Assembly (NCBI GenBank): GCA_026986655.1
Contig: JALSOD010000190.1
Coordinates: forward strand, 1-35,467
Source of the DNA: a candidate division WOR-3 bacterium
GTDB taxonomy: Bacteria; Hydrothermota; Hydrothermia; B15-G9; WFZT01
Reading direction: 5' to 3'
DNA length: 35,467 bases
Shown: positions 2,192 through 23,558 of the stretch, piece after piece
How positions within the stretch are numbered: the first letter of the stretch is position 1
Layout of the letters: every line of letters starts with the position of its first letter
Made by a program: the position numbers and the translations under genes
The notes under the pieces: model-generated
What the model saw: the letters and a program-made list of their open reading frames with translations, nothing else
Databases searched by the model: none
Told to the model about the DNA's origin: nothing

Positions 2192-2259
2192 ATCAACTCG
2201 AATAAAACAAACCTCAAAATCTTAAATAATATCCCGACGAATCCAATTGAGGGATAAAC

Positions 2260-3300: not shown

Positions 3301-3356
3301 ATTAGGAGTGGAAATTACTTAGAGCAGGGCGAAACCGATTGATTTACCAGAGTTCA

Positions 3357-4178: not shown

Positions 4179-4927
4179 GTCCCTATCACCACCACTCCTT
4201 CCAAATCCTTAAGCAACCTCACAGCCGAAAGCGCAGCCAAAAGACTCGTCCTATCGTTCATCTTCACATTCTTAGTGATCGTCACAATTTCTCCGAAATC
4301 CCCCCTCACCCTAATCTCGTGAACATTTTTCTCCACATCGGGATCGGCGATTATCTTCACCCTAGTTCTCTCATATCCGACTCCGGCCAAGCTCAGAGTT
4401 GCCGCGATGTTCACGTTCTGGGGGAACAACCTTATGGCATCTTTTGCACTGCCCTCAAATAAGATCGTCGGCTTTTCTGTTCTCAATCCGAAGGCCTTTG
4501 GGTTCTTCCTTGTTATGAGCTCCACTTCCGCAATCATATCGGATACGGCCTTAACGCCATCTATCCCCACGATAGCTCCAGACGGAATGTATACCCTTTT
4601 GCCGTTTCTTCTCGCAACTCTCTCAAGCTTCTTTAGGAACTTTTCATCCAATGCACCAACGCTCAACACCATTAAATCCTTTCCCGACTCAAGTATCCTT
4701 TCCCCATAATCCCTCACAGCCTTTTGTGATGCAGCCTCAACGACCAAGTCCATTTCCAAAGATACGAATTCCTCAAAGCTTTTAGCAACCTTGGGCTTGA
4801 ATTTGAGCTCTTCGGCAAGCCTCACTGCCTTATCCCTAACCACATCGAACAATGCAACGACTCTTCCATCCATCACCTTGGCTATGAACGATCCTATTGC
4901 CCCGCAACCTATTATTCCAATCTTCAT
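4175..4927 (-). CDS. nadX: L-aspartate dehydrogenase (NadX type)
   Basis: 250 aa with an N-terminal Rossmann motif IGIIGCGAIG. The central VEAASQKAVRDYGERIL and C-terminal NVNIAATLSLAG...HEIRVRGDFGE resemble the Archaeoglobus/Thermotoga aspartate dehydrogenases as I recall them. It has 4-nt overlaps with both neighbours. Confidence 0.85.
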   Translation of the reverse strand: MKIGIIGCGAIGSFIAKVMDGRVVALFDVVRDKAVRLAEELKFKPKVAKSFEEFVSLEMDLVVEAASQKAVRDYGERILESGKDLMVLSVGALDEKFLKKLERVARRNGKRVYIPSGAIVGIDGVKAVSDMIAEVELITRKNPKAFGLRTEKPTILFEGSAKDAIRLFPQNVNIAATLSLAGVGYERTRVKIIADPDVEKNVHEIRVRGDFGEIVTITKNVKMNDRTSLLAALSAVRLLKDLEGVVVIGT

Positions 4928-5832
4928 GACCTTCCACCCCTCGAAATCTCCATCATTCGCTCTATAGCTCTCTTAGCCTTTCTCGCCACATCACTCGGAA
5001 CTTCTACTACATTTCTCTCCTCCCTCAAAGCCCTTAAAACATCCCTAAGCGTGTTCATCTTCATCTCTCTGCATATCACGCATTTCAAAGGATCTACTCG
5101 ATAACCTTCCGCCTTAAGCCTCTCTATCAGCCCGATCTCAGTTCCTATTACCGCACTTCCATGCTTTCTGACGAACTCCACCATCTGGCTCGTGGAACCA
5201 ATGTAATCCGACAACAGCTGAACTTCGGGGTTGCATTCAGGATGAACTATTATTGGAACTCCCTTAGCCTTAGCCCTAATAACATCCGATCTATCGAATT
5301 GGACGTGGACGTAGCAATGCCCACCCTCGGGAACGGGAATAACTCTCTTTTTAGTCTTCCATTCCGCAAACCAAGCCAAATTCCTATCCGGCCCAAGCAA
5401 AACTTCGTCGGAATTAAGCGATTTCACAACTCTAACAACGTTTGCGGAGGTGCAACATATATCCGCTTCCGCCTTAACTTCCGCATAAGTGTTGACGTAG
5501 GCTACAAATGGTAACCCATTTTCCTTCGCCTTATCGACCATTTCAGCATTGAGCTGCGATGCCATAGGACACTTAGCTTCCACTGGAATCAGAACAGTCT
5601 TCTCTGGATTCAAAATGGCTGCCGTTTCCGCCATGAAATCCACTCCGCAAAATATTATAACATCCGCATCCGTCTTCGATGCCATTACGGACAACTCCAA
5701 ACTATCGCCTACGAAATCCGCTATCTTCTGAATTTCCAAACGTTGATAGCTGTGCGCCAGTATAACTGCATTCTTCTCCTTCTTTAGTCTAATTATCTCC
5801 TTCACTAAATTCGAACACATGTTCGCGAACAC
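4924..5832 (-). CDS. nadA: Quinolinate synthase
   Basis: 302 aa. AVILAHSYQ, FCGVDFMAETA and HPECNPEV are characteristic NadA blocks. It is the first gene of the operon. The true start may be the internal Met (MCSNL...). Confidence 0.9.
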   Translation of the reverse strand: MFANMCSNLVKEIIRLKKEKNAVILAHSYQRLEIQKIADFVGDSLELSVMASKTDADVIIFCGVDFMAETAAILNPEKTVLIPVEAKCPMASQLNAEMVDKAKENGLPFVAYVNTYAEVKAEADICCTSANVVRVVKSLNSDEVLLGPDRNLAWFAEWKTKKRVIPVPEGGHCYVHVQFDRSDVIRAKAKGVPIIVHPECNPEVQLLSDYIGSTSQMVEFVRKHGSAVIGTEIGLIERLKAEGYRVDPLKCVICREMKMNTLRDVLRALREERNVVEVPSDVARKAKRAIERMMEISRGGRS

Positions 5833-5982
5833 GTGTTCGGTTAAGCCTTATAAGGTTAACGGTAGTTCCGAATGATCGTATGACGGTTCTGCAGATTCTC
5901 CACCATTTACAACCTTTGTAAACTTTCCTTACCCATACCGGCAAAGCTTTGTCTAATTTCCTTTTGACGTAACTCCGATCCA

Positions 5983-6339
5983 CTACGAAATTAATCCTGA
6001 TGGAAAGCAGAAATAGAGCGAATTCGTCGCCGATATTCCTGGATTTCGACACGCTTTACCCTTCTCGTAAGGACAAAACCTGCAAACGTCGTCAGCACTT
6101 TCAACAACTCCAACCTGCCTCTTCTTCAGGACCCTAAACATGTTCTTAACAAAACTCCGATTGTGCCCCTCTTCTGTTCTGGCTATCTGCTACTTCCATA
6201 AACAGTAAACGTTTCCTTCAATCTTGTCGAAAGTATTTCCTCCCCTGAAAATTGAATATTCGTAAGTCGGTACCTCTTTCTCGTAATTCTCGTAACAACC
6301 AAATGTCATGCAGTTTAAACAGAAGTTAGCTTTGATCAT
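5983..6339 (-). pseudogene. Cys-rich DUF1284-like gene interrupted by an in-frame TAG and decayed at the 3' end
   Basis: From ATG 6339-6337 the frame reads MIKANFCLNCMTFGCYENYEKEVPTYEYSIFRGGNTFDKIEGNVYCLWK*. The stop is codon 50 at 6192-6190. The same frame continues QIARTEEGHNRSFVKNMFRVLKKRQVGVVESADDVCRFCPYEKGKAC. The downstream part changes frame again. Confidence 0.4.
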
Positions 6340-6378
6340 AGCAACTTAATAGGATGAGCAGTAAAGAGGTGTTAGAAA

Positions 6379-6686
6379 ATGGAGACGTTTGTTTATGTAA
6401 TGGATGAGTATATCCCAACCGATCTGACTAAGAAAGAGGTTTTAGAAGCCTTTAAAGAGACAAGCTGAAACCTTTTGAATTCGTAAGAGATATCGTTGAG
6501 GATAAAGGTGTCGAAGGGATAAGCGATATAACATTCTACAATGCCTATTTTAAGCGTGATGAGTTTTTAATCGAATACTTAGTTGATTTTAGTGCAGGTA
6601 CAATTGCCGTTAAAGTCATAGGTTCCAGCGATCCGAGAAGAATGCTCGTAGAGTACTATAGATATATCCAGCAAACTAAAGCTTAA
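6379..6686 (+). pseudogene. Small hypothetical gene split by a frameshift
   Basis: ATG 6379 gives METFVYVMDEYIPTDLTKKEVLEAFKETS* with TGA at 6466-6468. A different frame then continues from 6468: KPFEFVRDIVEDKGVEGISDITFYNAYFKRDEFLIEYLVDFSAGTIAVKVIGSSDPRRMLVEYYRYIQQTKA* (stop 6684-6686). Confidence 0.35.
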
Positions 6687-6984
6687 TCCATCTGATCTTA
6701 TCTTCACCCTTTATCTTCTTGAAATACTCAATCTCTTCTCTCATTCCCTCCGTAATCTCATCTCCAAAAACCCAAAGTTCATCACAAAATTCGAGCAATT
6801 TCTTGTTCATATCTAAAGCTTTTCTTCGATCTTCTGGATTGTAATCATCCATGAACTGGCTAAAGTAGACGTGAGGAGCTATTGGAATATAGCCCATATC
6901 AACGAGCATCCTACAATACTTCTTTGCCTTCTCGATGTTCTCTTGCTTTCCTTGAAAAGGAGAGCAGACAAATACAATCTTCAT
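6676..6984 (-). CDS. Nucleoside 2-deoxyribosyltransferase-like small protein (DUF4406-like)
   Basis: 102 aa. The pattern VFVCSPFQG...A..Y......G.IPIAPH..F......ED...AL......L..CDELWVFG..ITEGM..EI matches the Rossmann-like deoxyribosyltransferase-like fold families as I recall them. Confidence 0.5.
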   Translation of the reverse strand: MKIVFVCSPFQGKQENIEKAKKYCRMLVDMGYIPIAPHVYFSQFMDDYNPEDRRKALDMNKKLLEFCDELWVFGDEITEGMREEIEYFKKIKGEDKIRWIKL

Positions 6985-7039
6985 CGTTGTTTTCTAATTG
7001 GGATTAAATATATAACGTATGCTTTACGAGTGGATATTA

Positions 7040-7300
7040 ATGGAAGAGATATTAGTTAAAGTTCCTAAGGATTTGGTTAGGATTCTGAAAGTGAGAGATG
7101 AGGACGTTCCGAAACTCGTCAGGCTCTACTTAGCTATTGAGCTTTATAGGGAAGGAAAGGTCAGCTTAGGAAAAGCCGCTGAGATAGCTGGAGTTAGCAA
7201 GTGGGAAATGATGGAAATCCTAGCATCCAAGAATATTCCGATACAGTACAGCGTAGATGATTTAGAGAAGGACATAAAGACATTGGAAGAGATATTATGA
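7040..7300 (+). CDS. UPF0175-family antitoxin-like protein (pair 1)
   Basis: MEEILVKVPKDLVRIL...LAIELYREGKVSLGKAAEIAGVSKWEMMEIL matches the two paralogs at 8724..8993 and 9934..10239. Its stop overlaps the start of the next gene by 4 nt. The ORF track starts at 7019; I prefer the Met at 7040 by alignment with the paralogs. Confidence 0.8.
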   Translation: MEEILVKVPKDLVRILKVRDEDVPKLVRLYLAIELYREGKVSLGKAAEIAGVSKWEMMEILASKNIPIQYSVDDLEKDIKTLEEIL

Positions 7301-7794
7301 TCGTAGTTTCAAATTCTAGTCCTCTAATTGCATTAGCTAAGATCGGGAAATTGTATATTCTAAGAGAACTCTTTAAAGAGATTATAATTCCGAAAGCTGT
7401 TTGGAATGAGGTTGTTGTTAAAGGCAAAGGAAAGCCAGGAGCTGAAGAGGTAGAAAAAGCGGAGTGGATTAAAGTCAGAGAAGTTAAGGATAGGCTTAGC
7501 GTTGAAGTTCTAAAGGGGGAAATAGAGATTGGAGAGGCAGAGGCAATAATTCTAGCAAAAGAGCTTAATGCTGATTTACTCATAATGGATGAGAAGATAC
7601 CAAGGATTATTGCCGAATCCATTGGCTTGAGAGTTATTGGTTCTCTTGCAATTCTCTATATTGCTAAGAAAAGAGGATTGATCAAGGAAGATTTCGACGA
7701 AATCGTTAAAGAATTGAGAGCTAGGGGCATTAGATTCAGCGATGACGTAATTAATAGACTAAAGCAAAAGTGGAAGAATAAAAACCTATTCTAA
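7297..7794 (+). CDS. DUF3368-type PIN-like nuclease toxin (pair 1)
   Basis: 165 aa. The N-terminus VVSNSSPLIALAKIGKLYILRELF plus GEAEAIILAKELNADLLIMDE is shared with 8276..8740 and 9446..9937. Confidence 0.8.
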   Translation: MIVVSNSSPLIALAKIGKLYILRELFKEIIIPKAVWNEVVVKGKGKPGAEEVEKAEWIKVREVKDRLSVEVLKGEIEIGEAEAIILAKELNADLLIMDEKIPRIIAESIGLRVIGSLAILYIAKKRGLIKEDFDEIVKELRARGIRFSDDVINRLKQKWKNKNLF

Positions 7795-9022: not shown

Positions 9023-9436
9023 CTATTCCTTAACATACTGCCCCCCAACCGGAATAAACCTCTTCGGCTTTATCGGCTTGTCGTATTTCTTAATATCTTC
9101 GAGCTCTATGACAAGCCACTTTTTCTTACCCTCACCTCTTCGACTCCACCTACTCTGAGATTTAACGTATTCTCTAAGCTCCTCTCTCGTCAGAAATACT
9201 CTATCACCATAAATTTCAAAGACCTTCATAGGATCGTCGATCAGCTTGATTTCCTTTATCTTAGCTTCCCCCACAAATCCTTGATCTTCTCTCGATTGGT
9301 AAAACACGAACTTCATCCCGGGCTTTAGCTCCTTAAAGCATGTAGCAGGCTTGACGAATACATCTTTACCCTCTTTAAAGAACCTATCCACGAACCGTTT
9401 TGGAATTGGGAATGCTACGCCTACAATCTTTGCCAT
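9023..9436 (-). CDS. PUA-like/ASCH-fold small protein (archaeal DUF365-like)
   Basis: 137 aa, 9 nt downstream of the pair-3 PIN gene. The beta-rich core KPGMKFVFYQSREDQGFVGEAKIKEIKLID plus the C-terminal KPKRFIPVGGQYV resembles ASCH/PUA-like folds. The fold call is tentative. Confidence 0.45.
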   Translation of the reverse strand: MAKIVGVAFPIPKRFVDRFFKEGKDVFVKPATCFKELKPGMKFVFYQSREDQGFVGEAKIKEIKLIDDPMKVFEIYGDRVFLTREELREYVKSQSRWSRRGEGKKKWLVIELEDIKKYDKPIKPKRFIPVGGQYVKE

Positions 9437-10555: not shown

Positions 10556-11665
10556 TCATACCTGTCTGAGGTATGCCAACACAATCAGGTCATTGCCATT
10601 TTGTTTTATTTCTATTTTTTCAGTGTTTTCGAAATTTGAACAGAGCTCATTTTCAAGCATGAGCTTAATCGCCCTAGCCATTGAATAAATGACGATTTCG
10701 TCGTCTTCATAGCATTTAGCGAATTTGGGGAAAGGTATTTCGACAACATAATAATTCTCTTTATCGGTTTTTTGGCTTATCTCAAGCAGTTTGACAACTT
10801 CCTCACTCAACTTTTCAGTATCTAATTGAGCTGAAGGATTGATTAGTTTTGCAATACCACGTTTCTCGAGCTTTAATTTTCTTTTGTTTTTAGAGTTCAA
10901 AATTTTCAGCTGGTAGATATTTGCAGTTTTTCTGTTCCAGAATCTCAGCCAACTGTCCAGTGTCATCACTGGGAGTTCTTGATCCAAAATGTAGAGCTTT
11001 CCATTAATTTCAATACCTGCTGCAACATGTCGTGGGATTGAAATGAAGCAAATCTGGCTGTTGGGGATTAAATTATAGAGTGAAACAGCTGTAAGTTTTG
11101 CATAGTCTCTACATATAGCTAATCTGTACTTGAGGATTTTATCGACTTGGAGAGTTATGTTGAATGTATCTTGCAATTTAAAGCCTGGTATTCTCGATTT
11201 TAGAGCAGAATACTTTAAAACTAGATAGCCGATGAGAGCTAAAATAGCTCCAAAAACTAGTGAAAGGCCTGCAAGTTGAGCTACTGGATAAAATTTCTGG
11301 GCCTGTAAGGGATTAACCGAAAATATCCACAATGTGAAGATTAAAATCGTTGCAATTAATGTTGTGGCGTACGAAAGCATTAAAGTAAAATTTACTACTC
11401 CCATTAAGAATAAAATAAAAATTAAAATATATTTTATATCATTATTACTTAATGGAAGAAGATATATTGAAATAGCTAGTAAGAAATACAAAATCAACGA
11501 ATAATGCATTCTATCCACCCAAAAAGTAATGTTCCTGTTCTGCCATTCTAGCAAATTGACTAAAGTTTCCTTTTCTGATTTTCTTTTGAGCTTTTTTGAT
11601 AGTTCTATTATTTTCGGGTCTTTTAGTTCATCTAAATTCGGTAAAAATTGCTTTTTACCCCCCAA
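10556..11665 (-). CDS. Multi-pass membrane protein with a transglutaminase-like Cys-His-Asp core; N-terminus probably disrupted at a G6 run
   Basis: 369 aa from a TTG start. It has 4-5 hydrophobic helices, then AICRDYAKLTAVSLYNL (Cys), PRHVAAGIEINGKLYILD (His...Asp). A 28-codon ORF (11741..11655) with a good AGGAG site ends inside the G6 run (11658-11663) one frame off. Confidence 0.6.
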   Translation of the reverse strand: MGGKKQFLPNLDELKDPKIIELSKKLKRKSEKETLVNLLEWQNRNITFWVDRMHYSLILYFLLAISIYLLPLSNNDIKYILIFILFLMGVVNFTLMLSYATTLIATILIFTLWIFSVNPLQAQKFYPVAQLAGLSLVFGAILALIGYLVLKYSALKSRIPGFKLQDTFNITLQVDKILKYRLAICRDYAKLTAVSLYNLIPNSQICFISIPRHVAAGIEINGKLYILDQELPVMTLDSWLRFWNRKTANIYQLKILNSKNKRKLKLEKRGIAKLINPSAQLDTEKLSEEVVKLLEISQKTDKENYYVVEIPFPKFAKCYEDDEIVIYSMARAIKLMLENELCSNFENTEKIEIKQNGNDLIVLAYLRQV

Positions 11666-11956: not shown

Positions 11957-14900
11957 TTAGATATTTTTACTTGCTTTTCTCAGCCTATAGACATAATATG
12001 GCCTATATTCAATCTCAAAATCTAATTTATTCACTGGATCGTTAATTATTTCAAGGGTGGTCCTTGTTCGATCGAGAGCGTACCTAACAACGTAAAGGTA
12101 ATACGTTTTACCGTAGAATTTTGCAGCTTTAAACTCATTCTCGGTAAGAGTAATTTTTTCAGGCTCATTCTTGAACGATTTTACTTCGATTCTTCTTTTT
12201 TCGCCAGTGATTGGATCAAAGCTTTCGATATCATATCCTCTTCCCTCAGCTGAAACATCTTTGGGTATCCTTCCCTCTTTTTCTTCCCACTTTAATACAA
12301 ACTCCATACCAGCAAGCTCAACATCCCTCTTCTTTTTCCATAACTCGGGATCAAATTCCTCGATGATATCAGTGATTTTACTCAGAATAGCCCTGTCCTT
12401 GGTACTCTCGGCAACACCTATAAGCAAATCACTTACATTCTCTGGCTTCAAAACCCAAAACTCAGCTATAGGTTCCGAAAGCTTCTCAATTACTCTTAAA
12501 GTTCTTGCGTATTCTCTTTTCTTCTGTTCTTCAATCTCTTTTAGTCTAATCTTTGCTACACTTTCATCAAAGTAACGCTTGTAGTAGTCTTCTCCCATTT
12601 TAAGAGCTTCTAAAGCTCTCTTTACCCTCTGCATTAGATACTGCCTTTGCTCGCTCTTTAATCTCTCGATGTATTCCTTGTTAGAAATTTCAAGCTTTTT
12701 GGGGCTTAATCTTTTGAAAATCTCTTTTTCGATATCTTCGGTAAGAACAAGAGGCTCAAGAGTCTGCAAAAAGCTATAAGGTTTGACTTCACCGTTAAAG
12801 ATAACTACTGGAATTTCAAAGAAAGGATTGCCAAAATTATCAAAGAGTTTTAAGATTCTTACTTCACCGTAGCCTTCGGTATCTCCCGTGAAGATTGCTT
12901 TTCCTCTCTTACACATACCAATGTATAGGGCTTTTCTGATCACAGGATTGTCAAGCTTAAGATCCCTTTTGCTGAGAGTGTTTTCATATTTCAGGTCGAG
13001 AATTTCAGCTCTTGTAGGCTTCCTTTCCAGAAGTATACTATCGATATCAATCTCATCGCTTTGTATCTCGAAGAATACAAAATCATCATAGAAGTTTCCA
13101 CTTCCGAGTCCAGCCTCGCGGAAATAAAAGAGATATTTTCGGATATCCTCTTCCGTTATTAACTCAATCACACCCTTATCTTCAAAAAGTTTCTCAGCCC
13201 TTACGTGTCTCTTCGCAGCCTCAGCCTTTTCTAAAACAAGTCTGATTTTTTCAAGAATTGGCTTTCCTCTTTCAAACTTCTCTTTTACACCTTCAGCCGC
13301 CTTTTCAACTTCATCCCTAACGTAAGCCTTTCGAATCTCATCTTCAATATCCTTCTCGGAGATTATCGTTCCTATTATCTCAACGCTACCAATATCGAAA
13401 TCTCTTTCAATCGTTCTTATTTTCTCGATAACTACCTCTAAAACCCTTTTTTCAACTTTAAAAACGGGTAACATACTATAGATAAATATATTGTTTTTCT
13501 GTCCGTAACGGTAGACTCTACCTACCCTCTGAATGTACACAACCGGATTCCATGGTATTTCGTAATGAATTATAACGTTAGCCGCCTGTAGATTAAGACT
13601 TTCACCTGCAGCATCTGTAGCAACCAATATTTTAGCTCGATTCCATAGCTCTGCAACAGCATTCTTCTTTTCTTCATGACTCATTCCACCGTGAATTATC
13701 ACGACATTTTCGGGACCATAAACATCTTCAAGGACTTTCTTAAGGCTAAAGAGTGTTGCAAGAAATTGCGTGAAAATTATTATCTTGTATCCCCTTTGTA
13801 GTGGTTCCATAATTATCTGCAAAAGCTTCTTAGTCTTGCTATCTCTTCCCCTTTCAAGTAATTTCTCTCCAAGCTCTATTAATTCCTGTAGAATTTTCTT
13901 TTCCGTTTCAATAAGCTCTCTCTTTTCTGGAGGAACGTATTCCAAAATTTTGTTTCTCAGTTCTTCAACTTTTGCATCATCTCCTTCTTCTTCAGCCTGA
14001 TTGATTTGTGTTAAGAGTTCATCAAGGTTGTAAGTTTCTGCGGTTCCTTCGATAAGTCGCTTTAGTCTTCTTTTTAGAGCGGCAACACCTGCGGCGATAC
14101 TCGATGAAACCGTTCTTCCAATAATTGTAGCAACAAGTCCAATACCCCTATTATTCTCTTGTTCAGCAAGCTTGTAGTAATTCCTAATGTAATCCTCAAC
14201 TCTCCAGTAAAATTCTTTCTCTTTTTTATCTGGTTCTATTTCAAACGTTTGAGTTATAACCGCCTGAGGAAATATCTTCTTTCCTTCAAGATCGACAGCA
14301 TCTCTCTTCTTTCGCCTAAAAGTATAATTTCTAACGAACTCCTCCCAGTTAGTCTCATCAACGTTCCTGTTTATCAGACTAAGTCTATAAATGAAGTTCT
14401 CCTCCTTGCCATCGTGAGGGGTAGCTGTTAATGCAAGCATATGCCTCGTCCTATCCCTTAAAACTTGAATAAGCTGGGCTCTTCTGTTTTCGGGTGTAGC
14501 TCTGTGAAGTTCATCAACGACAACTATATCCCATCTATACTGCCCTTCTTCAATTCTGGATAACCATCTTTCACTCTTTAGCGTATCCATTGAGGCTATC
14601 AACCATTTCTGCTTAAGCGGATCTTTTCCTTCATTAAGGACTTCCTTTAAAAGTGAGAATTTCACTCCAAATTTGCTTTCCAGTTCGTCCTGCCACTGAT
14701 ACTGGACAGTCGGAGGTGTAACTATTAGAATTCTCGTATTTTCATTTCGCAGAATCATCTCCTTAATGAATAACCCGGCGAGTATGGTCTTACCTAATCC
14801 CGTTTCGTATGCTATTAACACTCTTACGGGCATTCCGCTATCTGCTAAATCAAGGAGGTTGAGAAAGTCTTCAAGCTGATATGGTAGGAGATTAATCTTT

Positions 14901-14989
14901 GATGCAGCAAGAACGCTGATAGGATCGTAAATATACTTTGTGTAGAGGTAGTATGAATCGCATGCAACTCTAAAGAGGGGATATAGCAT
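11957..14989 (-). CDS. SNF2-family (SF2) helicase/translocase with a C-terminal DUF3883-like PD-(D/E)xK nuclease-fold domain
   Basis: 1010 aa. Helicase motifs: LLPYQLEDF (Q/Ia-like), ETGLGKT (I), VVVDELHRA (II), LTATPH (III), ILVATDAAGESLNLQ (V), QRVGRVYRYGQ (VI). C-terminus: ELAGMEFVLKWEEKEGRIPKDVSAEGRGYDIESFDPITGEKRRIEVKSFKN...LTENEF..A.....YYLYVV (DUF3883-like). Confidence 0.85.
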   Translation of the reverse strand: MLYPLFRVACDSYYLYTKYIYDPISVLAASKINLLPYQLEDFLNLLDLADSGMPVRVLIAYETGLGKTILAGLFIKEMILRNENTRILIVTPPTVQYQWQDELESKFGVKFSLLKEVLNEGKDPLKQKWLIASMDTLKSERWLSRIEEGQYRWDIVVVDELHRATPENRRAQLIQVLRDRTRHMLALTATPHDGKEENFIYRLSLINRNVDETNWEEFVRNYTFRRKKRDAVDLEGKKIFPQAVITQTFEIEPDKKEKEFYWRVEDYIRNYYKLAEQENNRGIGLVATIIGRTVSSSIAAGVAALKRRLKRLIEGTAETYNLDELLTQINQAEEEGDDAKVEELRNKILEYVPPEKRELIETEKKILQELIELGEKLLERGRDSKTKKLLQIIMEPLQRGYKIIIFTQFLATLFSLKKVLEDVYGPENVVIIHGGMSHEEKKNAVAELWNRAKILVATDAAGESLNLQAANVIIHYEIPWNPVVYIQRVGRVYRYGQKNNIFIYSMLPVFKVEKRVLEVVIEKIRTIERDFDIGSVEIIGTIISEKDIEDEIRKAYVRDEVEKAAEGVKEKFERGKPILEKIRLVLEKAEAAKRHVRAEKLFEDKGVIELITEEDIRKYLFYFREAGLGSGNFYDDFVFFEIQSDEIDIDSILLERKPTRAEILDLKYENTLSKRDLKLDNPVIRKALYIGMCKRGKAIFTGDTEGYGEVRILKLFDNFGNPFFEIPVVIFNGEVKPYSFLQTLEPLVLTEDIEKEIFKRLSPKKLEISNKEYIERLKSEQRQYLMQRVKRALEALKMGEDYYKRYFDESVAKIRLKEIEEQKKREYARTLRVIEKLSEPIAEFWVLKPENVSDLLIGVAESTKDRAILSKITDIIEEFDPELWKKKRDVELAGMEFVLKWEEKEGRIPKDVSAEGRGYDIESFDPITGEKRRIEVKSFKNEPEKITLTENEFKAAKFYGKTYYLYVVRYALDRTRTTLEIINDPVNKLDFEIEYRPYYVYRLRKASKNI

Positions 14990-14993
14990 GATC

Positions 14994-15470
14994 TCACCCT
15001 ATAAAGATGTCTCCAAACTTTTCCTGAAAAGCTTTAAGAATGAAATTGAATTCATGAGACTCAAGTACTCCTAAACCGTAGCCATCGATGTAATCTTGAA
15101 TCTTTACGAACTTCTTAACTACTGGCTCTCTTGAAAAGATCATAGCTGAAAAGGAAACTCGCCAAGGAAAGAGTACTCTTTTTGATTTAAGCTCAATATC
15201 CCAAATTGGAGTTTGATCATCAAAAAATCTCTCTTTTATGACTCCTATGGCATGAATTTCTCCCGTTTTCGCAATTTGAAAAACTGCAACATCAAAAGGT
15301 TTTATTTGATTATATTTCCTTAAGAAATTTCTCCAGTTCTTATTCAGCTTATCTTTTAGTTTCTCTCGTTCCTCACTGACATAATCTGGATCGAAGAACC
15401 CCCACAGCAAGTGCCTACATCCAGTTTCAATGTTTTCAAGGCTATGAGAGCTGAAGATCCAGTAAGTCAT
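14994..15470 (-). CDS. EVE/PUA-like small protein (divergent paralog of 22412..22858)
   Basis: 158 aa. MTYWIF...LLWGF, IKPFDVAVFQ, GEIHAIGVIKERF and LFPWRV align by eye with MAYWLC...[27 protein letters not shown] and TFPWRV of the other ORF. Its ATG overlaps the methyltransferase stop (ATGA). Its stop is 4 nt from the helicase ATG. Confidence 0.5.
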   Translation of the reverse strand: MTYWIFSSHSLENIETGCRHLLWGFFDPDYVSEEREKLKDKLNKNWRNFLRKYNQIKPFDVAVFQIAKTGEIHAIGVIKERFFDDQTPIWDIELKSKRVLFPWRVSFSAMIFSREPVVKKFVKIQDYIDGYGLGVLESHEFNFILKAFQEKFGDIFIG

Positions 15471-18085
15471 TTAACACCCCACCTTTCCAATCCAATCGTC
15501 TCTATATGCTTTAATATCTCTGCAGCTTTCTTTGCTTCTCTGTCGTTCTGTCTTTTTGGATCTTGTCTAATCTTTGCGAGAGCTTTAAGGACACCGATTA
15601 TGGCTTTCCTTGAATACGGACACTCGCTCACGACTTTATCAAATCCCTTTAGCCCTTCGATGTCATAAGCCCTTAGGGCTCTGTGAACGTAATCGATTAG
15701 GCTACTGCCCTTTATAGCATCATAGCCAGCAACTTCAAGGTTAAGATCTCCTCTGTAGTAATCTTGGAGGATAACGACTTTCCTACCCTTCTTCTTTTCT
15801 ACCTTAATGATTCTGCTCTTTTCAAGGTCTTTTTCGTTCAATCCAAGGCTTTTAATGAACTGGTTGGCTGTGTCGTAGTCCATCGTATCCATACCGTTAA
15901 GACGGGAGTAAACGTAGAACGTCGTAACAGGATCGGCTTCCTCTCCGATCGTCTTTCTTGTTATGTATTTTGCCATTATCGTTTGAGCGATTTCAATCGC
16001 ACTCTTAGCAGTTATCTTACCTGAATAACTCTTAATTTCCGCGTAGTTCGTGAGAACTTCTAAAGCAACTCCCATTGCAGCGACGAGAAGATCGGAACCC
16101 TTAAGTCCGTATTTTTCTAACATCTCCGCTCTTTCGTAGATTCTCCGCTCAATTTCTGGCATTATATCCTCAAGAAAGCCTACTTTGTTTTCCTTTCTCT
16201 TTCTTGCTGAAATTATTAGGCTATGGTATATGGACTTCTTTCCTCTTGCAACTGAACTCTCGCTATGTTCAGTATGAATTGGGAAAGTTGCGGTAATGTT
16301 AAAGCCAGACAGTCTTAAAGCTTCAAGAACAAAATACCAAGCTTCGGGGTTTTTATGAGCAAAGAATAAGACGAGAATTCCATCATCGTCAAGGAGGTTG
16401 TATATGTTCTGCATTGTTTTTATAAAGAGCTTGTTGAAGAACTCTTTGTCTCTGTCTCCTCCAACGTCGAGTTCTTCCTTTGTTTCTACTCTGTCGTTCT
16501 TGAAGAATCTGGACTCTTTTTCAAAGAGATGTCCGATTATACGCTTGTGCCAAATGTAGAAAACCTCACTGACCTCTCCATACGGAATATCGTCGTAGTA
16601 GGGAGGATCAGTAACTATAACTCTAAACGTCTTCTGAGGTTTCCATGAAGCAGTGGACTCGTTTATGATCTGAATATTGCTGTTTGTGTTGGAAAGTTTC
16701 TCAATTGAATATTTTAAAGCGTCAAGAATGTCGTTTATATTGTTTACAAAAGTGCCAGATGATTTTACAAATGGGTTTACTTCAATGTGATTCCACATCA
16801 TTGCAATTCCTCTTTGAGAGAAAACGTGATTTACAACTTCGTATGATGCTTCCCAACTTGCTGCTCTTGAATTAAAGCGTAGATTTTTTGTTATGATAGA
16901 CGCAAGATATACACCTATTGCCTTTGCATACTCTTCATCTTTCTTAGCTATTTCATTAACAATCTTTCTCGCTTTTTCAGCATATTTTATCATCAGGAGT
17001 AACTGTCTTGGATTGAAGAGCTGATACCATTTTGGCAGATATAAATATATCCACATAGCTCTATTATTCTCTGGGATATTTCCATCGGGAATCAATCCCT
17101 CACGATAAAACCTGAACCAGTTCTTCTTTAACTCTTTCTCAGCTTCTTTAAAAGCTTTTAAATCCTCATCAGAAGGAATATCGTATTCTTTACCACCTCT
17201 ATTGCCAGAAAGTAAAACAACAGCAAGCAATTTCTCTTTCTCATTCTCTCTTATCTGCTTCACAATCTCTTCATTGGGTATGTGCGCTCCACATTTCAAG
17301 CAAACTCCATTTCCCCTTGAGACGTTTCCTTCTGGAGCCTTACCTTCTTTAATCTCAAGCTTCAGCTCGTTACCTTCAATCTTATAGGCAAGATACAGGT
17401 TCTTGCCACTTTTAGTCTTAGCAAGTTGCCACGAACCAACCAAAGGCGTTTCAAATCCACACTGTGGACATTTAACAACCCAAGCATAGATGTATGCTGC
17501 TACATCCTTTCCATTATGTTTTGGATAGAATTTGCCAAGATCTTCTTTAAGTTCGTTGAAGATTTGATTTGCATACTTCTTAACATCGTAGTAAAGTTTC
17601 ATTCCATATTTCTTTGGATATTCAAGAGTAGCCTTCAAAATTAGGTAAGCAACAGGATTGTAATCGACTGCAACGACGTTACATCCAAGCCTTAAAGCTT
17701 CAAAAGGAATCGAGCCTCCACCAGCAAATGGATCGAGAATCGTTGGAATTTCTCCCCACGTTTTGATTATTGCATCTCTCAAGTATTCAGCGGGAGGATC
17801 TTGAGTATGTGCTCTTGGACCCTCGTCTATATTTCTTGGGATTCTTAAGATATGTAGCAAACTTGTTTTCAAGTTTCCATTATCCATAAACGACTTCGGG
17901 ATGTTATCTTTAGAAAGCAGAGCACCCAATACTGCGGCTCTTGCGGTTATTAAGGGTTTTCTCGCCCACCAGTAGTGTAATTCGAAAATGGGTGGTTTAG
18001 CGTTTCCAAGCTTCTCCTTTCTTGCCTCCTCACTTATTTCCTCAGTTGGGATAAACTCTTCAATTAGTAACCTTTTCATAAGCAT
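15467..18085 (-). CDS. DUF1156-type Zn-ribbon DNA methyltransferase (N6-A or N4-C class, DPPY catalytic motif)
   Basis: 872 aa. N-terminal LHYWWARKP (DUF1156 signature), DPFAGGGSIPFEALRLG (SAM motif I), CPQCG...CLKCG (Zn ribbon) and VTDPPYYDDIPY (motif IV). The start may be the third codon (ATG 18079), which is better spaced from the GGTGA that overlaps the vapC stop. Confidence 0.85.
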   Translation of the reverse strand: MLMKRLLIEEFIPTEEISEEARKEKLGNAKPPIFELHYWWARKPLITARAAVLGALLSKDNIPKSFMDNGNLKTSLLHILRIPRNIDEGPRAHTQDPPAEYLRDAIIKTWGEIPTILDPFAGGGSIPFEALRLGCNVVAVDYNPVAYLILKATLEYPKKYGMKLYYDVKKYANQIFNELKEDLGKFYPKHNGKDVAAYIYAWVVKCPQCGFETPLVGSWQLAKTKSGKNLYLAYKIEGNELKLEIKEGKAPEGNVSRGNGVCLKCGAHIPNEEIVKQIRENEKEKLLAVVLLSGNRGGKEYDIPSDEDLKAFKEAEKELKKNWFRFYREGLIPDGNIPENNRAMWIYLYLPKWYQLFNPRQLLLMIKYAEKARKIVNEIAKKDEEYAKAIGVYLASIITKNLRFNSRAASWEASYEVVNHVFSQRGIAMMWNHIEVNPFVKSSGTFVNNINDILDALKYSIEKLSNTNSNIQIINESTASWKPQKTFRVIVTDPPYYDDIPYGEVSEVFYIWHKRIIGHLFEKESRFFKNDRVETKEELDVGGDRDKEFFNKLFIKTMQNIYNLLDDDGILVLFFAHKNPEAWYFVLEALRLSGFNITATFPIHTEHSESSVARGKKSIYHSLIISARKRKENKVGFLEDIMPEIERRIYERAEMLEKYGLKGSDLLVAAMGVALEVLTNYAEIKSYSGKITAKSAIEIAQTIMAKYITRKTIGEEADPVTTFYVYSRLNGMDTMDYDTANQFIKSLGLNEKDLEKSRIIKVEKKKGRKVVILQDYYRGDLNLEVAGYDAIKGSSLIDYVHRALRAYDIEGLKGFDKVVSECPYSRKAIIGVLKALAKIRQDPKRQNDREAKKAAEILKHIETIGLERWGVK

Positions 18086-18478
18086 TCACCTTATCCAGAG
18101 TATATCTGGATAGACTCCTTCAAATTCTCTATCACCCGTAACTATAATTCCTTTCTTATCGATAGCTGTTGCAACGACGAAGGCATCCGCATAAGATAAG
18201 CTATACATAGCTTTAATCCTTCCGGCAGTCAAAGCTAAGCTTTCGTTAACTTCTACAAACTGAATGGGTAATCTTTTTACAATTGCTACCGCTTCATTGG
18301 CCTTTGCAGTCCCAAATTCTCTTGCAACGATGTAGTAAACCTCCCCAAGATTGACGTAGTTCATGAACAGTTTTATTTCACCCTTTTCAGCCTTATCAAT
18401 AAGTTCTTCGATCTTATCTGCTCCTTCCTCATTACCGAGATATGCAAGAACGGCAAAGCTATCTAAGACGTAATTCAT
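18086..18478 (-). CDS. vapC: PIN-domain toxin VapC
   Basis: 130 aa: MNYVLDSFAVLAYL (first acidic residue), ...YADAFVVATAI...IVTGDREF. It overlaps vapB by 4 nt. Its stop is directly adjacent to the methyltransferase ATG. Confidence 0.85.
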   Translation of the reverse strand: MNYVLDSFAVLAYLGNEEGADKIEELIDKAEKGEIKLFMNYVNLGEVYYIVAREFGTAKANEAVAIVKRLPIQFVEVNESLALTAGRIKAMYSLSYADAFVVATAIDKKGIIVTGDREFEGVYPDILWIR

Positions 18479-18705
18479 CTTTTCATCTCCCTCTCTTTCT
18501 CCTCCTTCTTATACTCAGCCATTATCTCGTCAAGCTTCCTCTTAAACTTCAGAAAGCCTCTTCCCTTGGTCTTAGGAACGGGAACTATGACAATCTCACC
18601 CCCAAAATCTAAAATCTCCACTTCGCTCCCAGCTTCAATTCCATACTTCCTCCTCAACTCCGCCGGCAAGACTATCTGCCCTTTAGTCGATATCTTAACA
18701 GGCAT
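18475..18705 (-). CDS. vapB: AbrB/SpoVT-type antitoxin VapB
   Basis: 76 aa: MPVKISTKGQIVLPAELRRKYGIEAGSEVEI is a swapped-hairpin AbrB/MazE-like motif. Confidence 0.85.
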   Translation of the reverse strand: MPVKISTKGQIVLPAELRRKYGIEAGSEVEILDFGGEIVIVPVPKTKGRGFLKFKRKLDEIMAEYKKEEKEREMKR

Positions 18706-18802
18706 ACAATCACCGTATAATGTTCTACCAACTTAGATATATGTTTTACCATACTGCCAATTCTCTTACACATGTCTAGGCTTTAAAATAATGAAATGAT
18801 GA

Positions 18803-19174
18803 TTATATAAGCCCATACAGCACTCTAAAGGCATAAGCTCCCTTCGAATTAGAAGAGAGCTTCCAAGCCCAGAAAAACACCTCCTCAGGCGGTAAATTAA
18901 GGATAACATCAATGAGTTTATACCTTTGCTCAGCCCTCTTCATCGAATTGAGAACTTTAAAAGCAACGTAAATTCTCATGGCTTTCTCGACATCATCTGT
19001 CTTATTTTCCATTTTCAGCTTTTTCATTAAACTCTTTATCGCCTCTTTTCTCCAAGACGTTGCTGAAGCTATTTTCATCCTGTATCCTCTATCTTTGTTC
19101 TGGAAATTCTCGTACATGGTTATATACTTCCCAGTTTCAACGATTTCGTAGATGGTATTCCTAAACGCAAGCAT
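18803..19174 (-). CDS. Hypothetical 123-aa helical protein, translationally coupled to the DUF499 gene
   Basis: The ATG at 19174-19172 directly follows the DUF499 stop (19177-19175, reading TAAATG). I recognise no motif. The C-terminus is [30 protein letters not shown]. Confidence 0.6.
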
Positions 19175-22100
19175 TTACGTCACCCTAAACCACTTCTGCG
19201 ATTTCGTCGTTGCAAGTTGCTCAACAAATAGCTTAAAGTCTTCATCGATCTTAACAGGATTTTCAAGCTCTAATTCAAATGTATATTCAGGATTCTCATC
19301 AAGGCTTGCAATTTTCTGTAAGATTTCATCCACAACTCCAACCTTAGCAAGTTCAACCTCACACTTAAAGGTTGTAACATTCTTTCCTTCAACTTCGACC
19401 TTAATAGTTCCTGAAAGGTTTAAGAATGGAACTGCACCGCTTATACTCAGCGAATCTTCCTTTAAGTTATCCGATCCCTTACCAGAAACTTTGATAAGAG
19501 TAACACTCCTACCACTGAAGTCCTCGAATTTCTCAAGAATATCATCTGAAGAAACTAAAGTCTCTTTAGGTTTAGGTGGCTGTGGAGAAGGTGTAACTAC
19601 TGGAGGCTTAACTCTTCTAAGCTTATCTTTGATTTCGTCAGCGTATTCCCTCCTGAAGATGTATGTTACTTCACCTTCACTTCCGAAAGCGTCTAAGACT
19701 GCTTTAGCTTCATCATTCTCCAATTCTACTCCACTTTCAAGCTTCTGTATCGACGAAATATCCCCAGCAAATAACTCAAGTTTATCTGATCGCTTTGCAG
19801 CATCAATTATATCCTTTCTGCTATACTCTAGGAGCTGTGAATCTATCTTTGAAAATTCCTCGTAATTCTTATCTCCGAGAACCTTAATAATTTTCTCAGC
19901 TATTAAATCAGCTCTCTTCTTCTTCGCAACTTCTAGAAGTTTTTCTGCAAAATCTTTTTTAAGGATGTAATCTGAACTTCTAACCTCAGCTACCTCAACA
20001 CCCATTTTGAGGTTCTTGAGAATTTCATCACTTTTTTCAAGATCGACTTCCTCAGGTTCACAGATTTCTCCTCTGAAAATGGCGATATCTCCAGTTTTAA
20101 CCAACTCTTTCAAGCTTGCTTTTAGAAGCTTTGCTGGGATGAATGGATAGCTCGTTGAATTTGCAGTAGTTTGGATAAGATCTGAGAACTTCACGTAATC
20201 CTTTTCAAGACCCATCACTCCTTCAACGTAGTCTATACTTGCGGTGCTTATGACCTTACCATACTTCTTTTCAAGATCTTCAAATATCCTCTCTGAGTAT
20301 TTTGCCTTATCATCATAGGTAATAGGTGAAATTGGCTTCACTTCTTGATCATTTTTCTTGTAAAATCCTGCATAAGAGTATAAGTTTATCAGCTTTTGTG
20401 CTGCTTTTGCATAGATTTTCTTCTGAATATCTCTAAGCTCCTTTATGAACTCCTTGTCTTTTGACCTTTCCTTCTTCAACTTCTCGCATGCAATCAATTC
20501 TTTAACTGTATCCCTAAACGAAGGTATCTCCGATGGTATTGGAAACAGCAAAATGACTGAATTTCTGTTTGGCGTGGTTATAGAAAGCATTTGTGAGAAT
20601 ATCCTACTGTAAACTTCCCTTCTTACAACATCTTCAGACACACTCTCATACTCCTTAGTGCTCTTTATTGCCCTATAATAGTTAAAAACATCTTCGTAAT
20701 CTATTACAAAAATGTTCAACCTGTTTGGATCGGTATTATCCTTCTTTATCTCCTTATCAAAGATATTAACGGCTATAGTCTCTGTAGATGGGATTATCTT
20801 AGAAATAAACTCTTTTTGGAGATGTAGCTTAACTTCCTCATCTTTAACATCTCTGGCAGCTATCCTGACTAAAGCTCTTGGATTTACTTCAGTCTTGAAG
20901 AAGTATCTATCCGTTCCTTCAGCTCTGAAAAGATGCGTAGTAATCTCATCATATAACCTCTCAAGATATGCGTCTATCGTTGATGGATCGAGATTAGCAT
21001 CGCCAAGCGCTCTAAACACCATTCTACCATTTGCTCCTCGCTTTGTTTCGTCTGGGAAGAGGGAGTAGAGGTAAACCGTAGTTGCGATCCTTACGAAGTT
21101 ACCGAATCTAATCTTACCACCATCAGCCTGCTGGGCGTGGGCCGTTCCTTCACTTGTAGCTATATCGGTTTGGACGACTTGATCGAGCTTCTTTCCAAAT
21201 ATTTCAGCCGTAAGCTTGCTTCTAAGTTCGGAATCAGATAGATCAACCTCACCAGCAGAAATGAAGAGACTTGTTTCTGGTAACTCATCAACATGCCTCA
21301 ATAGGTTCACTATAACTCTCGCCATTATCTTAAGAATTCCTCTCGTTCTCTGGAAGTTCTCATATGTGCCAATTCTACCAAAGAATATCTCTTCAATAAG
21401 TTCAGGATGGAAGGGATAACACTCGGCAAGTCTTTCTTCTCTATAAGCGTCGGCAACCCCGAGCTTGGCAACGTAAAGCTCATGGAGAGCTTTGGCAACC
21501 TTCCTGGCGAAGTTCTCATCAATGTGCTTTATGAATCTTTTCTTCAGAATTCTTATTATATCCTCCTTTGAAACTGGTTCTATCCTTATTGCTCCTCTTT
21601 CAGCTATTGCAGTGATATCTCTCAAAATTTGAGCCTCTTTTTGATAAGCTTCACTTTCTGGTATTGTAAGCACGACAATAGAAGTTTTTGTAGCCTCTGT
21701 AGCAACAAAGAGTGAGTGTATAAAACCCTTGTTTTGGGCAATCCTGCCGTTACCTTCTTTTTCGCCCATAATCTTAGAGAAGTAAACTACGAGTTCATCA
21801 AGGAGGAAAATAACAGGCTTACCGATTCTTCTTATAGCGTTTTCAATTTCTTTAGCGGTAGGAGGTAAAGTTTTTGAAGTTATAGAAACATCTCCTAATT
21901 CCTTCCCAATAACGTTCCAGAGGTTTGTTTCAGGATCAACGTTATGTCCGTCTATTGCAACTATCTTTACTTCAGGGATTGTTTCAAGTCCAAGTTCTTT
22001 AAGAATCTGTCTAATCTCCTGACTATTCAAAGCTACATCTCTATTCTTGAATACATGGTAGAGCATGACAAGAGTATGAGTTTTACCGCCTCCAAAGGTT

Positions 22101-22402
22101 GTATCAAGAATTATTGCATAGGATTCGTCTGAGATGGATGCCACTCGTGACAGGACTCTCATTAGTATGGTCTTCATGTAATCCGAAAAGTGCGTCTTTT
22201 TGAAGAATTGGACAGGATCAAGATAGATAGGATGAGCGTTTCCGCTGAGAAAGTTTGAGAATTCTACTTCAAAGATCGCTTCATTTATGCTTGCATGAGG
22301 GTTCGATGCAATTCTAACTAATTCATCGTCGAAAACGACTTTACCTTCCTTTATTGCATTCTTAAGAGATAAAGACTCAAAGTTGTAGACAGTCATAGTC
22401 AC
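19175..22402 (-). CDS. DUF499-family P-loop ATPase (large, about 1075 aa)
   Basis: LDTTFGGGKTHTL (the FGGGKTH P-loop typical of DUF499) and VIFLLDELVVY (Walker B-like). The likely start is ATG 22396 (GGAGGGTG upstream) rather than the GTG at 22402. Confidence 0.8.
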   Translation of the reverse strand: MTMTVYNFESLSLKNAIKEGKVVFDDELVRIASNPHASINEAIFEVEFSNFLSGNAHPIYLDPVQFFKKTHFSDYMKTILMRVLSRVASISDESYAIILDTTFGGGKTHTLVMLYHVFKNRDVALNSQEIRQILKELGLETIPEVKIVAIDGHNVDPETNLWNVIGKELGDVSITSKTLPPTAKEIENAIRRIGKPVIFLLDELVVYFSKIMGEKEGNGRIAQNKGFIHSLFVATEATKTSIVVLTIPESEAYQKEAQILRDITAIAERGAIRIEPVSKEDIIRILKKRFIKHIDENFARKVAKALHELYVAKLGVADAYREERLAECYPFHPELIEEIFFGRIGTYENFQRTRGILKIMARVIVNLLRHVDELPETSLFISAGEVDLSDSELRSKLTAEIFGKKLDQVVQTDIATSEGTAHAQQADGGKIRFGNFVRIATTVYLYSLFPDETKRGANGRMVFRALGDANLDPSTIDAYLERLYDEITTHLFRAEGTDRYFFKTEVNPRALVRIAARDVKDEEVKLHLQKEFISKIIPSTETIAVNIFDKEIKKDNTDPNRLNIFVIDYEDVFNYYRAIKSTKEYESVSEDVVRREVYSRIFSQMLSITTPNRNSVILLFPIPSEIPSFRDTVKELIACEKLKKERSKDKEFIKELRDIQKKIYAKAAQKLINLYSYAGFYKKNDQEVKPISPITYDDKAKYSERIFEDLEKKYGKVISTASIDYVEGVMGLEKDYVKFSDLIQTTANSTSYPFIPAKLLKASLKELVKTGDIAIFRGEICEPEEVDLEKSDEILKNLKMGVEVAEVRSSDYILKKDFAEKLLEVAKKKRADLIAEKIIKVLGDKNYEEFSKIDSQLLEYSRKDIIDAAKRSDKLELFAGDISSIQKLESGVELENDEAKAVLDAFGSEGEVTYIFRREYADEIKDKLRRVKPPVVTPSPQPPKPKETLVSSDDILEKFEDFSGRSVTLIKVSGKGSDNLKEDSLSISGAVPFLNLSGTIKVEVEGKNVTTFKCEVELAKVGVVDEILQKIASLDENPEYTFELELENPVKIDEDFKLFVEQLATTKSQKWFRVT

Positions 22403-22411: not shown

Positions 22412-22858
22412 TTATGACTCAGCTTCTCTTAAAATTAATTCATAATCTTCTTCCGGGATTTCCCGCATAGCCTTTCCCATTAGATGACCACTCCATCTCT
22501 TTTTGTTTGTAATGAATTTGAGCTTCGGAATTAAGGGCTTGAACTCCACGGGTTTGTCGAATATCTTAACAGGCTTAATCTTAACCCTCCAAGGGAAAGT
22601 TTCGTTAGTTTTCATACCCTTAGAACTGAAAATCCTCGTAGAATCCTTAAACGGCTCGGAAACGACTTCGTAAATTCCAACGATCCTCGACTCTTTAACT
22701 TCATCACCAACCTTCTCCTGCTTGAGATAGATCATAAGCTTATCTCCGGGCTTAACCTTAGCGATCGTATTCTTATGCCTCTCCGGAACTCCCCATACAT
22801 TTCGCTCCTTTATCACCTTCCAGTTTGCTTCGTTCGTAATGCAGAGCCAGTAAGCCAT
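22412..22858 (-). CDS. EVE (PUA-like) domain protein
   Basis: [30 protein letters not shown]...[13 protein letters not shown]...[12 protein letters not shown]...[13 protein letters not shown] prefer the start at 22858 because GAGGTGA lies 4 nt upstream; the ORF track starts at 22873. It ends 9 nt before the DUF499 gene. Confidence 0.6.
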
Positions 22859-22876: not shown

Positions 22877-23197
22877 TTATAGCCTCATAGCCTCAGTAAA
22901 CTTCTTAGCGTAATATTCAGAAATAGCATTATCAAGCTCGATAAACTTCTGAACGATTGGATTGTTCTTATTTAGCTTATACATCTTTGCTCTTCCAACT
23001 CTTCTTGTCTCCACAACTATTCCAAGATCCTCTAACGTTTTCCAGATCTTAAGTAAGGTAGTTCTACTAATTCCAGCACCTCTCGCTATCTCCGTTTTGG
23101 AGTAATCGAAAGCCTCGTTATCGATTAAGAAGTCGATTACCCTGATTATCGGATTATCCCTCCCCAAGAACTTCAGGAATATCGTCTCTTCCTCCAT
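22877..23197 (-). CDS. Winged-helix transcriptional regulator (first gene of the defence operon)
   Basis: MEEETIFLKFLGRDNPIIRVIDFLIDNEAFDYSKTEIARGAGISRTTLLKIWKTLEDLGIVVETRRVGRAKMYKLN is an HTH plus wing. The Met at 23197 has GGTGAGAGG upstream. The longer track ORF (to 23335) would overlap the divergent gene. Confidence 0.7.
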   Translation of the reverse strand: MEEETIFLKFLGRDNPIIRVIDFLIDNEAFDYSKTEIARGAGISRTTLLKIWKTLEDLGIVVETRRVGRAKMYKLNKNNPIVQKFIELDNAISEYYAKKFTEAMRL

Positions 23198-23288
23198 CCT
23201 CTCACCTATGGTATTATGGCATATATTGCCATTTTCTGTCACTGTATGACACAAATGTTTAAATCTCTTTTCATCAACGTTCATCAGG

Positions 23289-23558
23289 ATGAACAATGAA
23301 GAACTCCGCAACATTCTGAAAGCTACAATTCTCAAGAAGCTTAAGAGGAGAGGAAAATGGGGACACGCTCATACAAGCTTCGATAAACTAACTTCCGGAA
23401 TTCCAAAGCATTTACGTGGATTGGCTAAAGAAGTTGCCGAGGAATTGATTAAAGAAGGTTTACTAATCGCTAAGCCTACCTCCTACGGTTTGGAGATATC
23501 GTTAAATCCGAGAAGAAAGGCCGAGATCGATGAGATCATTGAGAAATACTTGAAATGA
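23289..23558 (+). CDS. Hypothetical small basic protein (possible winged-helix-like)
   Basis: 89-aa ORF, divergent from the operon regulator. I recognise no diagnostic motif. Confidence 0.55.
   Translation: MNNEELRNILKATILKKLKRRGKWGHAHTSFDKLTSGIPKHLRGLAKEVAEELIKEGLLIAKPTSYGLEISLNPRRKAEIDEIIEKYLK

Follow-up and report, generated by a model that had tools for sequence, protein, structure and literature searches.

The question raised by this locus is what is done by a small gene wedged between a DNA methylase gene and a helicase-nuclease gene. The window, by which we mean the whole stretch of DNA analysed, comprises 35,467 nucleotides (contig JALSOD010000190.1 of assembly GCA_026986655.1, from a candidate division WOR-3 bacterium). 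The gene, called X below, lies on the minus strand at 14994..15470, begins with ATG and encodes 158 amino acids; its product is a stand-alone, highly divergent EVE/YTH-like protein of the PUA superfamily, belonging to the MJ1369 family. A first-pass annotation, made from the letters of the window, had taken X for an EVE/PUA-like reader of modified bases, coupled in translation to both neighbours, that may tell the nuclease which DNA is modified.

The junctions of X were read from the sequence and are as the first-pass annotation had given them. The ATG of X shares an ATGA with the TGA of the methylase gene (plus-strand 15467-15470 reads 'tcat'), and the TGA of X at 14996-14994 is followed by four nucleotides (GATC) and then by the helicase ATG at 14989. 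Shine-Dalgarno-like motifs precede both starts: GGTGGGG lies 5-7 nt upstream of the ATGA, and GGGTGA/GGTGA lies upstream of the helicase ATG. The overlap, the 4-nt gap and these motifs are kept in three Hma loci, namely the window, L003 and L005, whose X proteins are 91% (L003) and 65% (L005) identical to that of the window. Between the window and L003, dS was 0.32 and dN 0.04 (dN/dS 0.127), with synonymous changes predominating. Since homologues are conserved, the junctions are kept and synonymous differences dominate, X is a real, expressed-looking gene under purifying selection. A spurious or overlapping ORF was ruled out by conservation (112 homologues) and by dN/dS. The arrangement suggests translational coupling, through which X would be produced along with the methylase and helicase-nuclease.

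The neighbours of X were identified using Pfam and PADLOC, and are indeed a methyltransferase and a helicase-nuclease. HmaB is a DUF1156/N6_N4 DNA methylase of 872 amino acids with a DPPY motif ('VTDPPYYDD'), encoded on the minus strand at 15467..18085 (Pfam DUF1156, 4e-15, and N6_N4_Mtase; PADLOC HmaB, 1e-75, and MTase_II, 1.6e-86). HmaA (11957..14989, minus strand, 1010 amino acids) consists of an SNF2 helicase with a C-terminal NOV_C nuclease (DUF3883, PD-(D/E)XK-type), matched by Pfam Helicase_C, SNF2-rel_dom, ResIII and NOV_C (2.4e-18) and by PADLOC HmaA (9e-86). HmaC, a DUF499 AAA+/ORC-like ATPase of 1075 amino acids, is encoded at 19175..22402 on the minus strand (PADLOC HmaC, 2.8e-58, and DUF499, 2.8e-39; NCBIfam DUF499_antiphage, 8.7e-45, which is below the cut-off of that model). 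With HmaA, HmaB and HmaC co-located on the minus strand from 11957 to 22402, the locus is an Hma system in the sense of PADLOC. Such a system is also called a Type-1 DUF499-centred BREX-related system, the name given to Hma in a 2026 survey (PMC12839542) that, in the accessible parts of its text, counts three core genes and treats EVE only as an earlier incidental association. No PADLOC model matched X, so X is listed there as neither core nor accessory. The locus is flanked by NAD-biosynthesis genes and therefore looks like a chromosomal defence island.

A second small gene of related type precedes HmaC and is, in gene order, the first putative reader module of the locus. It encodes a canonical EVE protein of the UPF0310/MJECL36 type (22412..22858, minus strand, 148 amino acids) and ends 9 nt ahead of the HmaC start. 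The product matched Pfam EVE (1.1e-27) and NCBIfam PRK00809 (3.6e-66) and is 67% identical to MJECL36 (PDB 2p5d), the sequence of which was taken from the supplement of PMC7641849. Further upstream, at 22877..23335 on the minus strand, a winged-HTH protein with weak HTH Pfam matches is encoded, a possible regulator of the operon; its orthologue in L105 matched HTH_20/HTH_IclR, and L105 has the same HTH-EVE-HmaC order as the window.

Several other genes of the window deserve mention. Directly after HmaC, a conserved ORF of 123 amino acids (18803..19174, minus strand) belongs to no family; searches of Pfam, NCBIfam and PADLOC gave nothing above threshold, with weak DUF7680/DUF6396 matches only. 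It is 93% identical in L003 and 77% identical in L005 at an unchanged position, and it may represent a fourth component, so far unrecognised, of these archaeal Hma systems. Inserted between HmaB and the block with HmaC is a VapBC-type pair (18086..18705, minus strand; antitoxin 18475-18705, PIN toxin 18086-18478), recognised by Pfam MazE_antitoxin (AbrB/MazE fold, 5e-13) and PIN (1.7e-18). The same slot holds VapBC plus a radical-SAM gene cassette in L003 (2589-7385) and a ParE-type toxin pair in L005 (3873-4323). It seems to be a hot spot at which toxin-antitoxin genes enter the operon. Genes for DUF365 and transglutaminase-like (DUF553/Transglut_core) proteins (window 9023-9436 and 10556-11665, minus strand) recur downstream of the Hma helicase or beside the canonical EVE in three separate loci, the others being L003 (18406-18822) and L106 (3541-3960 and 6434-7456).

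Is X then related to the canonical EVE protein, as had been proposed from five blocks aligned by eye? Direct searches gave little. Single-sequence searches of Pfam, PADLOC and PDB (phmmer) with X returned nothing significant, as did a PDB search with the X family profile, and a weak match to NCBIfam PRK00809 (E 0.0029) was the sole pointer to EVE among the direct family searches. Pfam EVE (PF01878) did not match X, its gathering score not being reached, and gave sub-threshold matches in 4 of 64 family members (best E 0.0019); Pfam YTH did not match X and was absent from the top family matches of the 64 members. BLASTP of X against the 22412..22858 product aligned the FPWRV block alone (E 0.008). 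X is, as the first-pass annotation had said, by far the more divergent of the two.

Family profiles were more sensitive. A 64-sequence alignment of the X family was compared using hhalign with a second alignment, of 25 sequences, that represented the window EVE family plus MJECL36. The two aligned end to end over 131 columns with a probability of 94.6% (E 7.2e-8) and about 21% identity at aligned positions; reversed-sequence controls gave probabilities of 0.2-0.3% and E-values of 0.2-0.3. All five proposed blocks were aligned, namely (T/A)YW, WG, KP(F/G)D, the I-x-(I/V) strand and FPWRV, which upholds the proposed kinship. In an exhaustive HMMER search of 1.84 billion representatives, the X family profile also reached three carriers of Pfam EVE (P0275, P0281 and P0282), which lay in the significant tail at library-wide E-values of 2e-5 to 3e-4.

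The structure of X was predicted with AlphaFold2 from the family alignment, yielding a mean pLDDT of 88.4 and a pTM of 0.83. DSSP assigned E3-8, H11-20, E22-25, H33-55, E61-66, E71-83, E103-112 and E133-136, followed by a C-terminal helix at residues 138-152. This order, b-a-b-a-b-b-b-b plus the C-terminal helix, is the element order described for the EVE domain (b-a-b-a-b-b-b-b; PMC7641849), a variant of the PUA/ASCH core with a six-stranded barrel. Foldseek of the model against the PDB gave 48 matches at E <= 1e-3, the listed ones being YTH domains, MJECL36 and the EVE-HNH enzyme VcaM4I. The lowest E-values were those of YTH domains (YTHDF2, 4.6e-5, TM about 0.5) and the top TM-score was that of MJECL36/2p5d (TM 0.61, E 8e-5); VcaM4I (6yex) gave a TM of 0.53. 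As MJECL36 is 67% identical to the 22412..22858 product, the structure with the best TM-score to X comes from an orthologue of the EVE encoded in this same window. A search of a viral library with X returned ASCH/EVE proteins. YTH and EVE matches were of similar strength, and prokaryotic YTH-like and EVE domains are known to be hard to separate (PMC7641849). The PUA-type fold expected by the first-pass annotation is thus what the model predicts, and the profile and model comparisons together support the placement of X as a divergent PUA-like superfamily protein with EVE and YTH as its nearest kin.

Conservation within the family is high. In the 64-sequence alignment, 16 positions are invariant (S8, W23, G24, F25, W46, R47, F49, I56, D60, Q65, D85, T87, P102, W103, G130 and G132) and a further 30 are nearly invariant, with about 50% identity across phyla. 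Tryptophans stand out at the level of motifs: W23 (in WGF) and W103 (in FPWRV) are invariant, and W4, W26 and W90 (the last in DDQTPxW) are nearly so. In the hhalign alignment, W23 and W103 correspond to the WG and FPWR motifs of EVE. The tryptophan after strand 2 and the aromatics before the FPWRV-like strand occupy what we take to be the positions of the cage tryptophans of YTH domains.

Dense conservation might also indicate catalysis, X being an enzyme that, for example, removes or hydrolyses an adenine N6 adduct in the manner of the ASCH protein YqfB. An unusually dense group of polar residues that are invariant in X but lacking in canonical EVE (S8, R47, D60, Q65, D85 and T87, with nearly invariant H73) would suit such an activity, and the PUA-like ASCH family does include a hydrolase (PMC12707154). 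Yet searches of Pfam, NCBIfam and PDB turned up no catalytic motif, and the nearest folds found with Foldseek are binding domains. We regard an enzymatic role as very improbable.

The distribution and genomic contexts of X were then surveyed. Homologues numbered 112 at E <= 1e-3, M. jannaschii MJ1369 among them, and the exhaustive HMMER search of 1.84 billion representatives placed the family in 55 clusters at E <= 1e-3, 30 of them at E <= 1e-10. One genome per species from 185,579 species yielded 14 X loci. No fusion of X to a nuclease or NTPase was present among all matches of the exhaustive search, and since all family members have at most 172 amino acids, except one of 246, X is never fused to another domain. 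The family is small, sparse, patchy, always stand-alone and dominated by archaea. No copies of X were found on IMG/VR viral contigs, and the idea of an anti-restriction protein was dropped on this ground. Literature searches found nothing on MJ1369 and no experimental work on the X family.

For the census of contexts, 103 loci with an X match, from genomes and metagenomes, were reduced to 86 distinct X sequences. Neighbours were classed by BLASTP against a reference panel, and some of those left unclassified were scanned with Pfam. Type I R-M operons accounted for 47 distinct loci, Hma/BR systems for four, other N6A methylases (Eco57I/MmeI-like, N6_N4) for three and a neighbouring SF1 helicase for two. 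Eight loci had no R-M neighbour despite adequate flanks, and in 22 the flank was too short to judge. The Pfam scan added GmrSD Type IV enzymes (L049, L050), Type III R-M (L061), AAA_15/21 ATPases (L012, L047) and further helicases to the neighbours of X. Two bacterially binned contigs carry X in Type I operons, one from a Planctomycetia MAG (L016) and one from a WOR-3 MAG (L018), either through horizontal transfer of the whole operon or through mis-binning.

Most Type I loci are arranged as HsdM-HsdS-X-HsdR(-YgjP), and X is typically spaced -4 to +17 nt from HsdS and HsdR. The gene after HsdR in most of these operons encodes a YgjP-like predicted metal hydrolase (PF01863; for example L002 13488-14051, and L015, L016, L021 and many more), the role of which is possibly the control of HsdR. 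Six Type I loci (L059, L060, L062, L067, L068 and L080) have the order HsdM-X-HsdS-HsdR instead; here X does not adjoin the R gene, and the X proteins form a separate clade in the tree. Placement directly before the effector helicase, which the first-pass annotation had emphasised, therefore holds for the window and is common, but not for these six loci nor for several loci with neither a helicase nor a methylase as neighbour. The stronger proposition, that X always directly precedes the helicase, is refuted by the six loci and by stand-alone copies.

In a neighbour-joining tree, MJ1369 shares a single clade with the X proteins linked to Hma, while those linked to Type I systems make up a large clade in which other contexts are scattered, from which we infer that the X gene has moved between systems. 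An unusual combination was seen in L024 (Ca. Methanodesulfokora, 830-7758), where X lies beside a cluster of BrxL-like Lon ATPase, DUF499 ATPase and DUF1156 methylase, a BREX-related variant unlike the window system. On one short contig (L058), an X-family gene (733-1206) overlaps by 4 nt the ORF behind it, which matches the canonical window EVE, so that two EVE-type putative readers stand in tandem. In A. fulgidus (L106, AE000782), X is a frameshifted pseudogene (34-485) directly upstream of the Hma helicase, residues 1-81 and 38-157 being encoded in different frames. The helicase gene (490-3506) is also split there, into 943 and 64 amino acids; AF_2356, the canonical EVE, is located 2.5 kb downstream. 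In L107, from a metagenomic relative, the helicase is intact and the X frameshift is shared. X is dispensable at least in A. fulgidus, since it is frameshifted there while the rest of the locus persists. Taken with L105, the A. fulgidus arrangement means that X plus a canonical EVE around one Hma system is a recurring constellation.

These contexts bear on whether X belongs to restriction at all. X could be a housekeeping PUA-like protein that binds RNA or tRNA, its position in restriction operons being secondary, as by hitch-hiking in defence islands. The X copies of M. jannaschii (MJ1369) and L009 do sit among housekeeping genes of translation and metabolism, some members are labelled 'predicted RNA-binding protein' by JGI, and the slow evolution of the family is like that of the housekeeping EVE class of Bell et al. 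(PMC7641849). However, at least 56 of the 86 distinct loci lie in or beside restriction or defence genes, mostly within operons at gaps of -4 to +17 nt, and the sparse, patchy spread (14 loci in 185,579 species, 55 clusters in 1.84 billion representatives) is unlike that of a core gene. A housekeeping function is accordingly thought unlikely.

A harder question is which mark would be read. In the main rival to the reading preferred below, X would recognise the m6A of its own operon as 'self', restraining or releasing the helicase-nuclease or aiding the methylase on hemimethylated DNA; its binding would not trigger cleavage. The operon-partner methylases of X are all of the N6-adenine type (HsdM/N6_Mtase, DUF1156/N6_N4 with DPPY, and Eco57I/MmeI-like), and m6A readers of the YTH class are the structural matches of lowest E-value in Foldseek. 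X is conserved whatever the specificity of HsdS, as fits a single, sequence-independent ligand, and m6A-triggered cleavage by way of X would make the host a target of its own methylase. On the other hand, Type I enzymes can already tell whether their own sites are methylated, and no trans-acting m6A reader in an R-M system was found in the literature searched. X also occurs alone, or with GmrSD, SF1 helicases or AAA_15/21 ATPases with no methylase nearby, and its TM-score to YTH (about 0.5) is exceeded by that to MJECL36, which is an EVE. We consider reading of the self mark possible, with the balance tilted clearly against it. The narrower version, in which X is a free-standing DNA-m6A reader that acts in trans as a self sensor and stops or disarms HsdR or the Hma SNF2-nuclease, is rated as rather doubtful; if true, it would amount to an epigenetic reader layer in prokaryotic restriction, like that of eukaryotic YTH proteins, on DNA.

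The most likely role of X is that of an accessory modified-base sensor for an ATP-dependent restriction motor. As we picture it, X would be a stand-alone accessory of ATP-dependent restriction based on N6-adenine methylases, Hma here and classical Type I R-M in most relatives, and translational coupling would yield it alongside the methylase and helicase-nuclease. X would bind DNA by flipping a modified base into a pocket lined by W23, W90 and W103 and would pass a signal to the translocating nuclease. The modification read would be one that the cognate methylase does not make, the direction proposed by Bell et al. (2020), and the motor-nuclease would thereby attack modified invader DNA that otherwise escapes a methylation-sensitive system. 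As for the canonical EVE encoded ahead of HmaC, it would serve as a second reader of another specificity.

A reader of foreign modification is favoured over a partner of one methylase because X is also found beside GmrSD and other methylase-less modules. To our knowledge, the characterised EVE, YTH and SRA modules in restriction all act as positive targeting devices, and this, together with the methylase-less modules that X accompanies, is why the published direction is preferred. Several observations count against the proposal. X is unusually conserved for a defence specificity module, its HsdS partners being about 33% identical where X is about 50% identical; it is never fused to a nuclease or NTPase, and some copies lie in housekeeping neighbourhoods; and in A. 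fulgidus it is frameshifted with the rest of the locus persisting. That X reads a non-cognate modification and so extends ATP-dependent, N6-adenine-methylase-based restriction to modified invader DNA is, taken as a whole, a tentative statement to which we give slightly less than an even chance.

The general association was published in 2020, with stand-alone readers beside this type of system and the essence of the functional reading (PMC7641849), and the value of the present work is for that reason refinement, not discovery. The refinements are as follows. X is part of a separate MJ1369-like family that Pfam does not see; this family resides chiefly where HsdS meets HsdR in archaeal Type I systems; and an Hma locus can hold two different EVE-type putative readers, X and a canonical EVE. 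If the reader role holds, archaeal Type I and Hma/BREX-related R-M systems would routinely carry a detachable modified-base sensor, and a methylation-sensitive system could also handle modified DNA of invaders, or verify the mark that it makes itself. Compact, strongly conserved and lacking a Pfam model, the MJ1369-like family is a tractable one for asking which modification archaeal restriction watches.

X was finally compared with known systems. YTH domains (YTHDF2, YTHDC1) gave X its lowest Foldseek E-values, yet the TM-score is about 0.5 and X has no Pfam YTH match. The archaeal McrB-fused YTH-like domain of Thermococcus gammatolerans binds m6A DNA, as cited in PMC7641849 and in PMC12707154. 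That domain too works in restriction, but it is fused, whereas X is a separate polypeptide and, unlike it, sits in operons that make m6A themselves. VcaM4I has an EVE-type fold like that of the X model, and its reader aims a nuclease at modified DNA; VcaM4I and related EVE-HNH/PUA-nucleases are, however, single-chain nuclease fusions specific for 5mC/5hmC, while X is never fused. MJECL36 (PDB 2p5d), the best match by TM-score, belongs to the family of the window's other EVE. X differs from MJECL36-type EVE by an insertion, a long helix at residues 33-55 that carries an invariant NWR motif. The invariant motifs DDQTPxW and DGYG are likewise peculiar to X, and its median pI is 8.6 as against 9.8 for canonical EVE.

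The closest published counterpart is the stand-alone EVE of Bell, Wolf and Koonin (2020; PMC7641849). In archaea they described 'a recurrent partnership' of such proteins with the COG1743 methylase, DUF499 and SWI2-SNF2 helicase-nuclease, and found stand-alone EVE and ASCH proteins, mostly archaeal, to be tied closely to Type I R-M. Their prediction was that, through the reader, the nuclease can restrict DNA that is modified, the mark of the methylase being ignored by the reader. The type of system and the idea of a modified-base discriminator are the same as for X. RSN72769.1, from Ca. Methanodesulfokores (also the source of L024), clearly belongs to the X family and is included in their EVE set, although the main text does not single out the X family or the HsdS-X-HsdR placement. 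The EVE gene described by them lies at the end of the operon, whereas X in the window lies between the methylase and the helicase; and the window, unlike their description, has a second, canonical EVE upstream of the ATPase.
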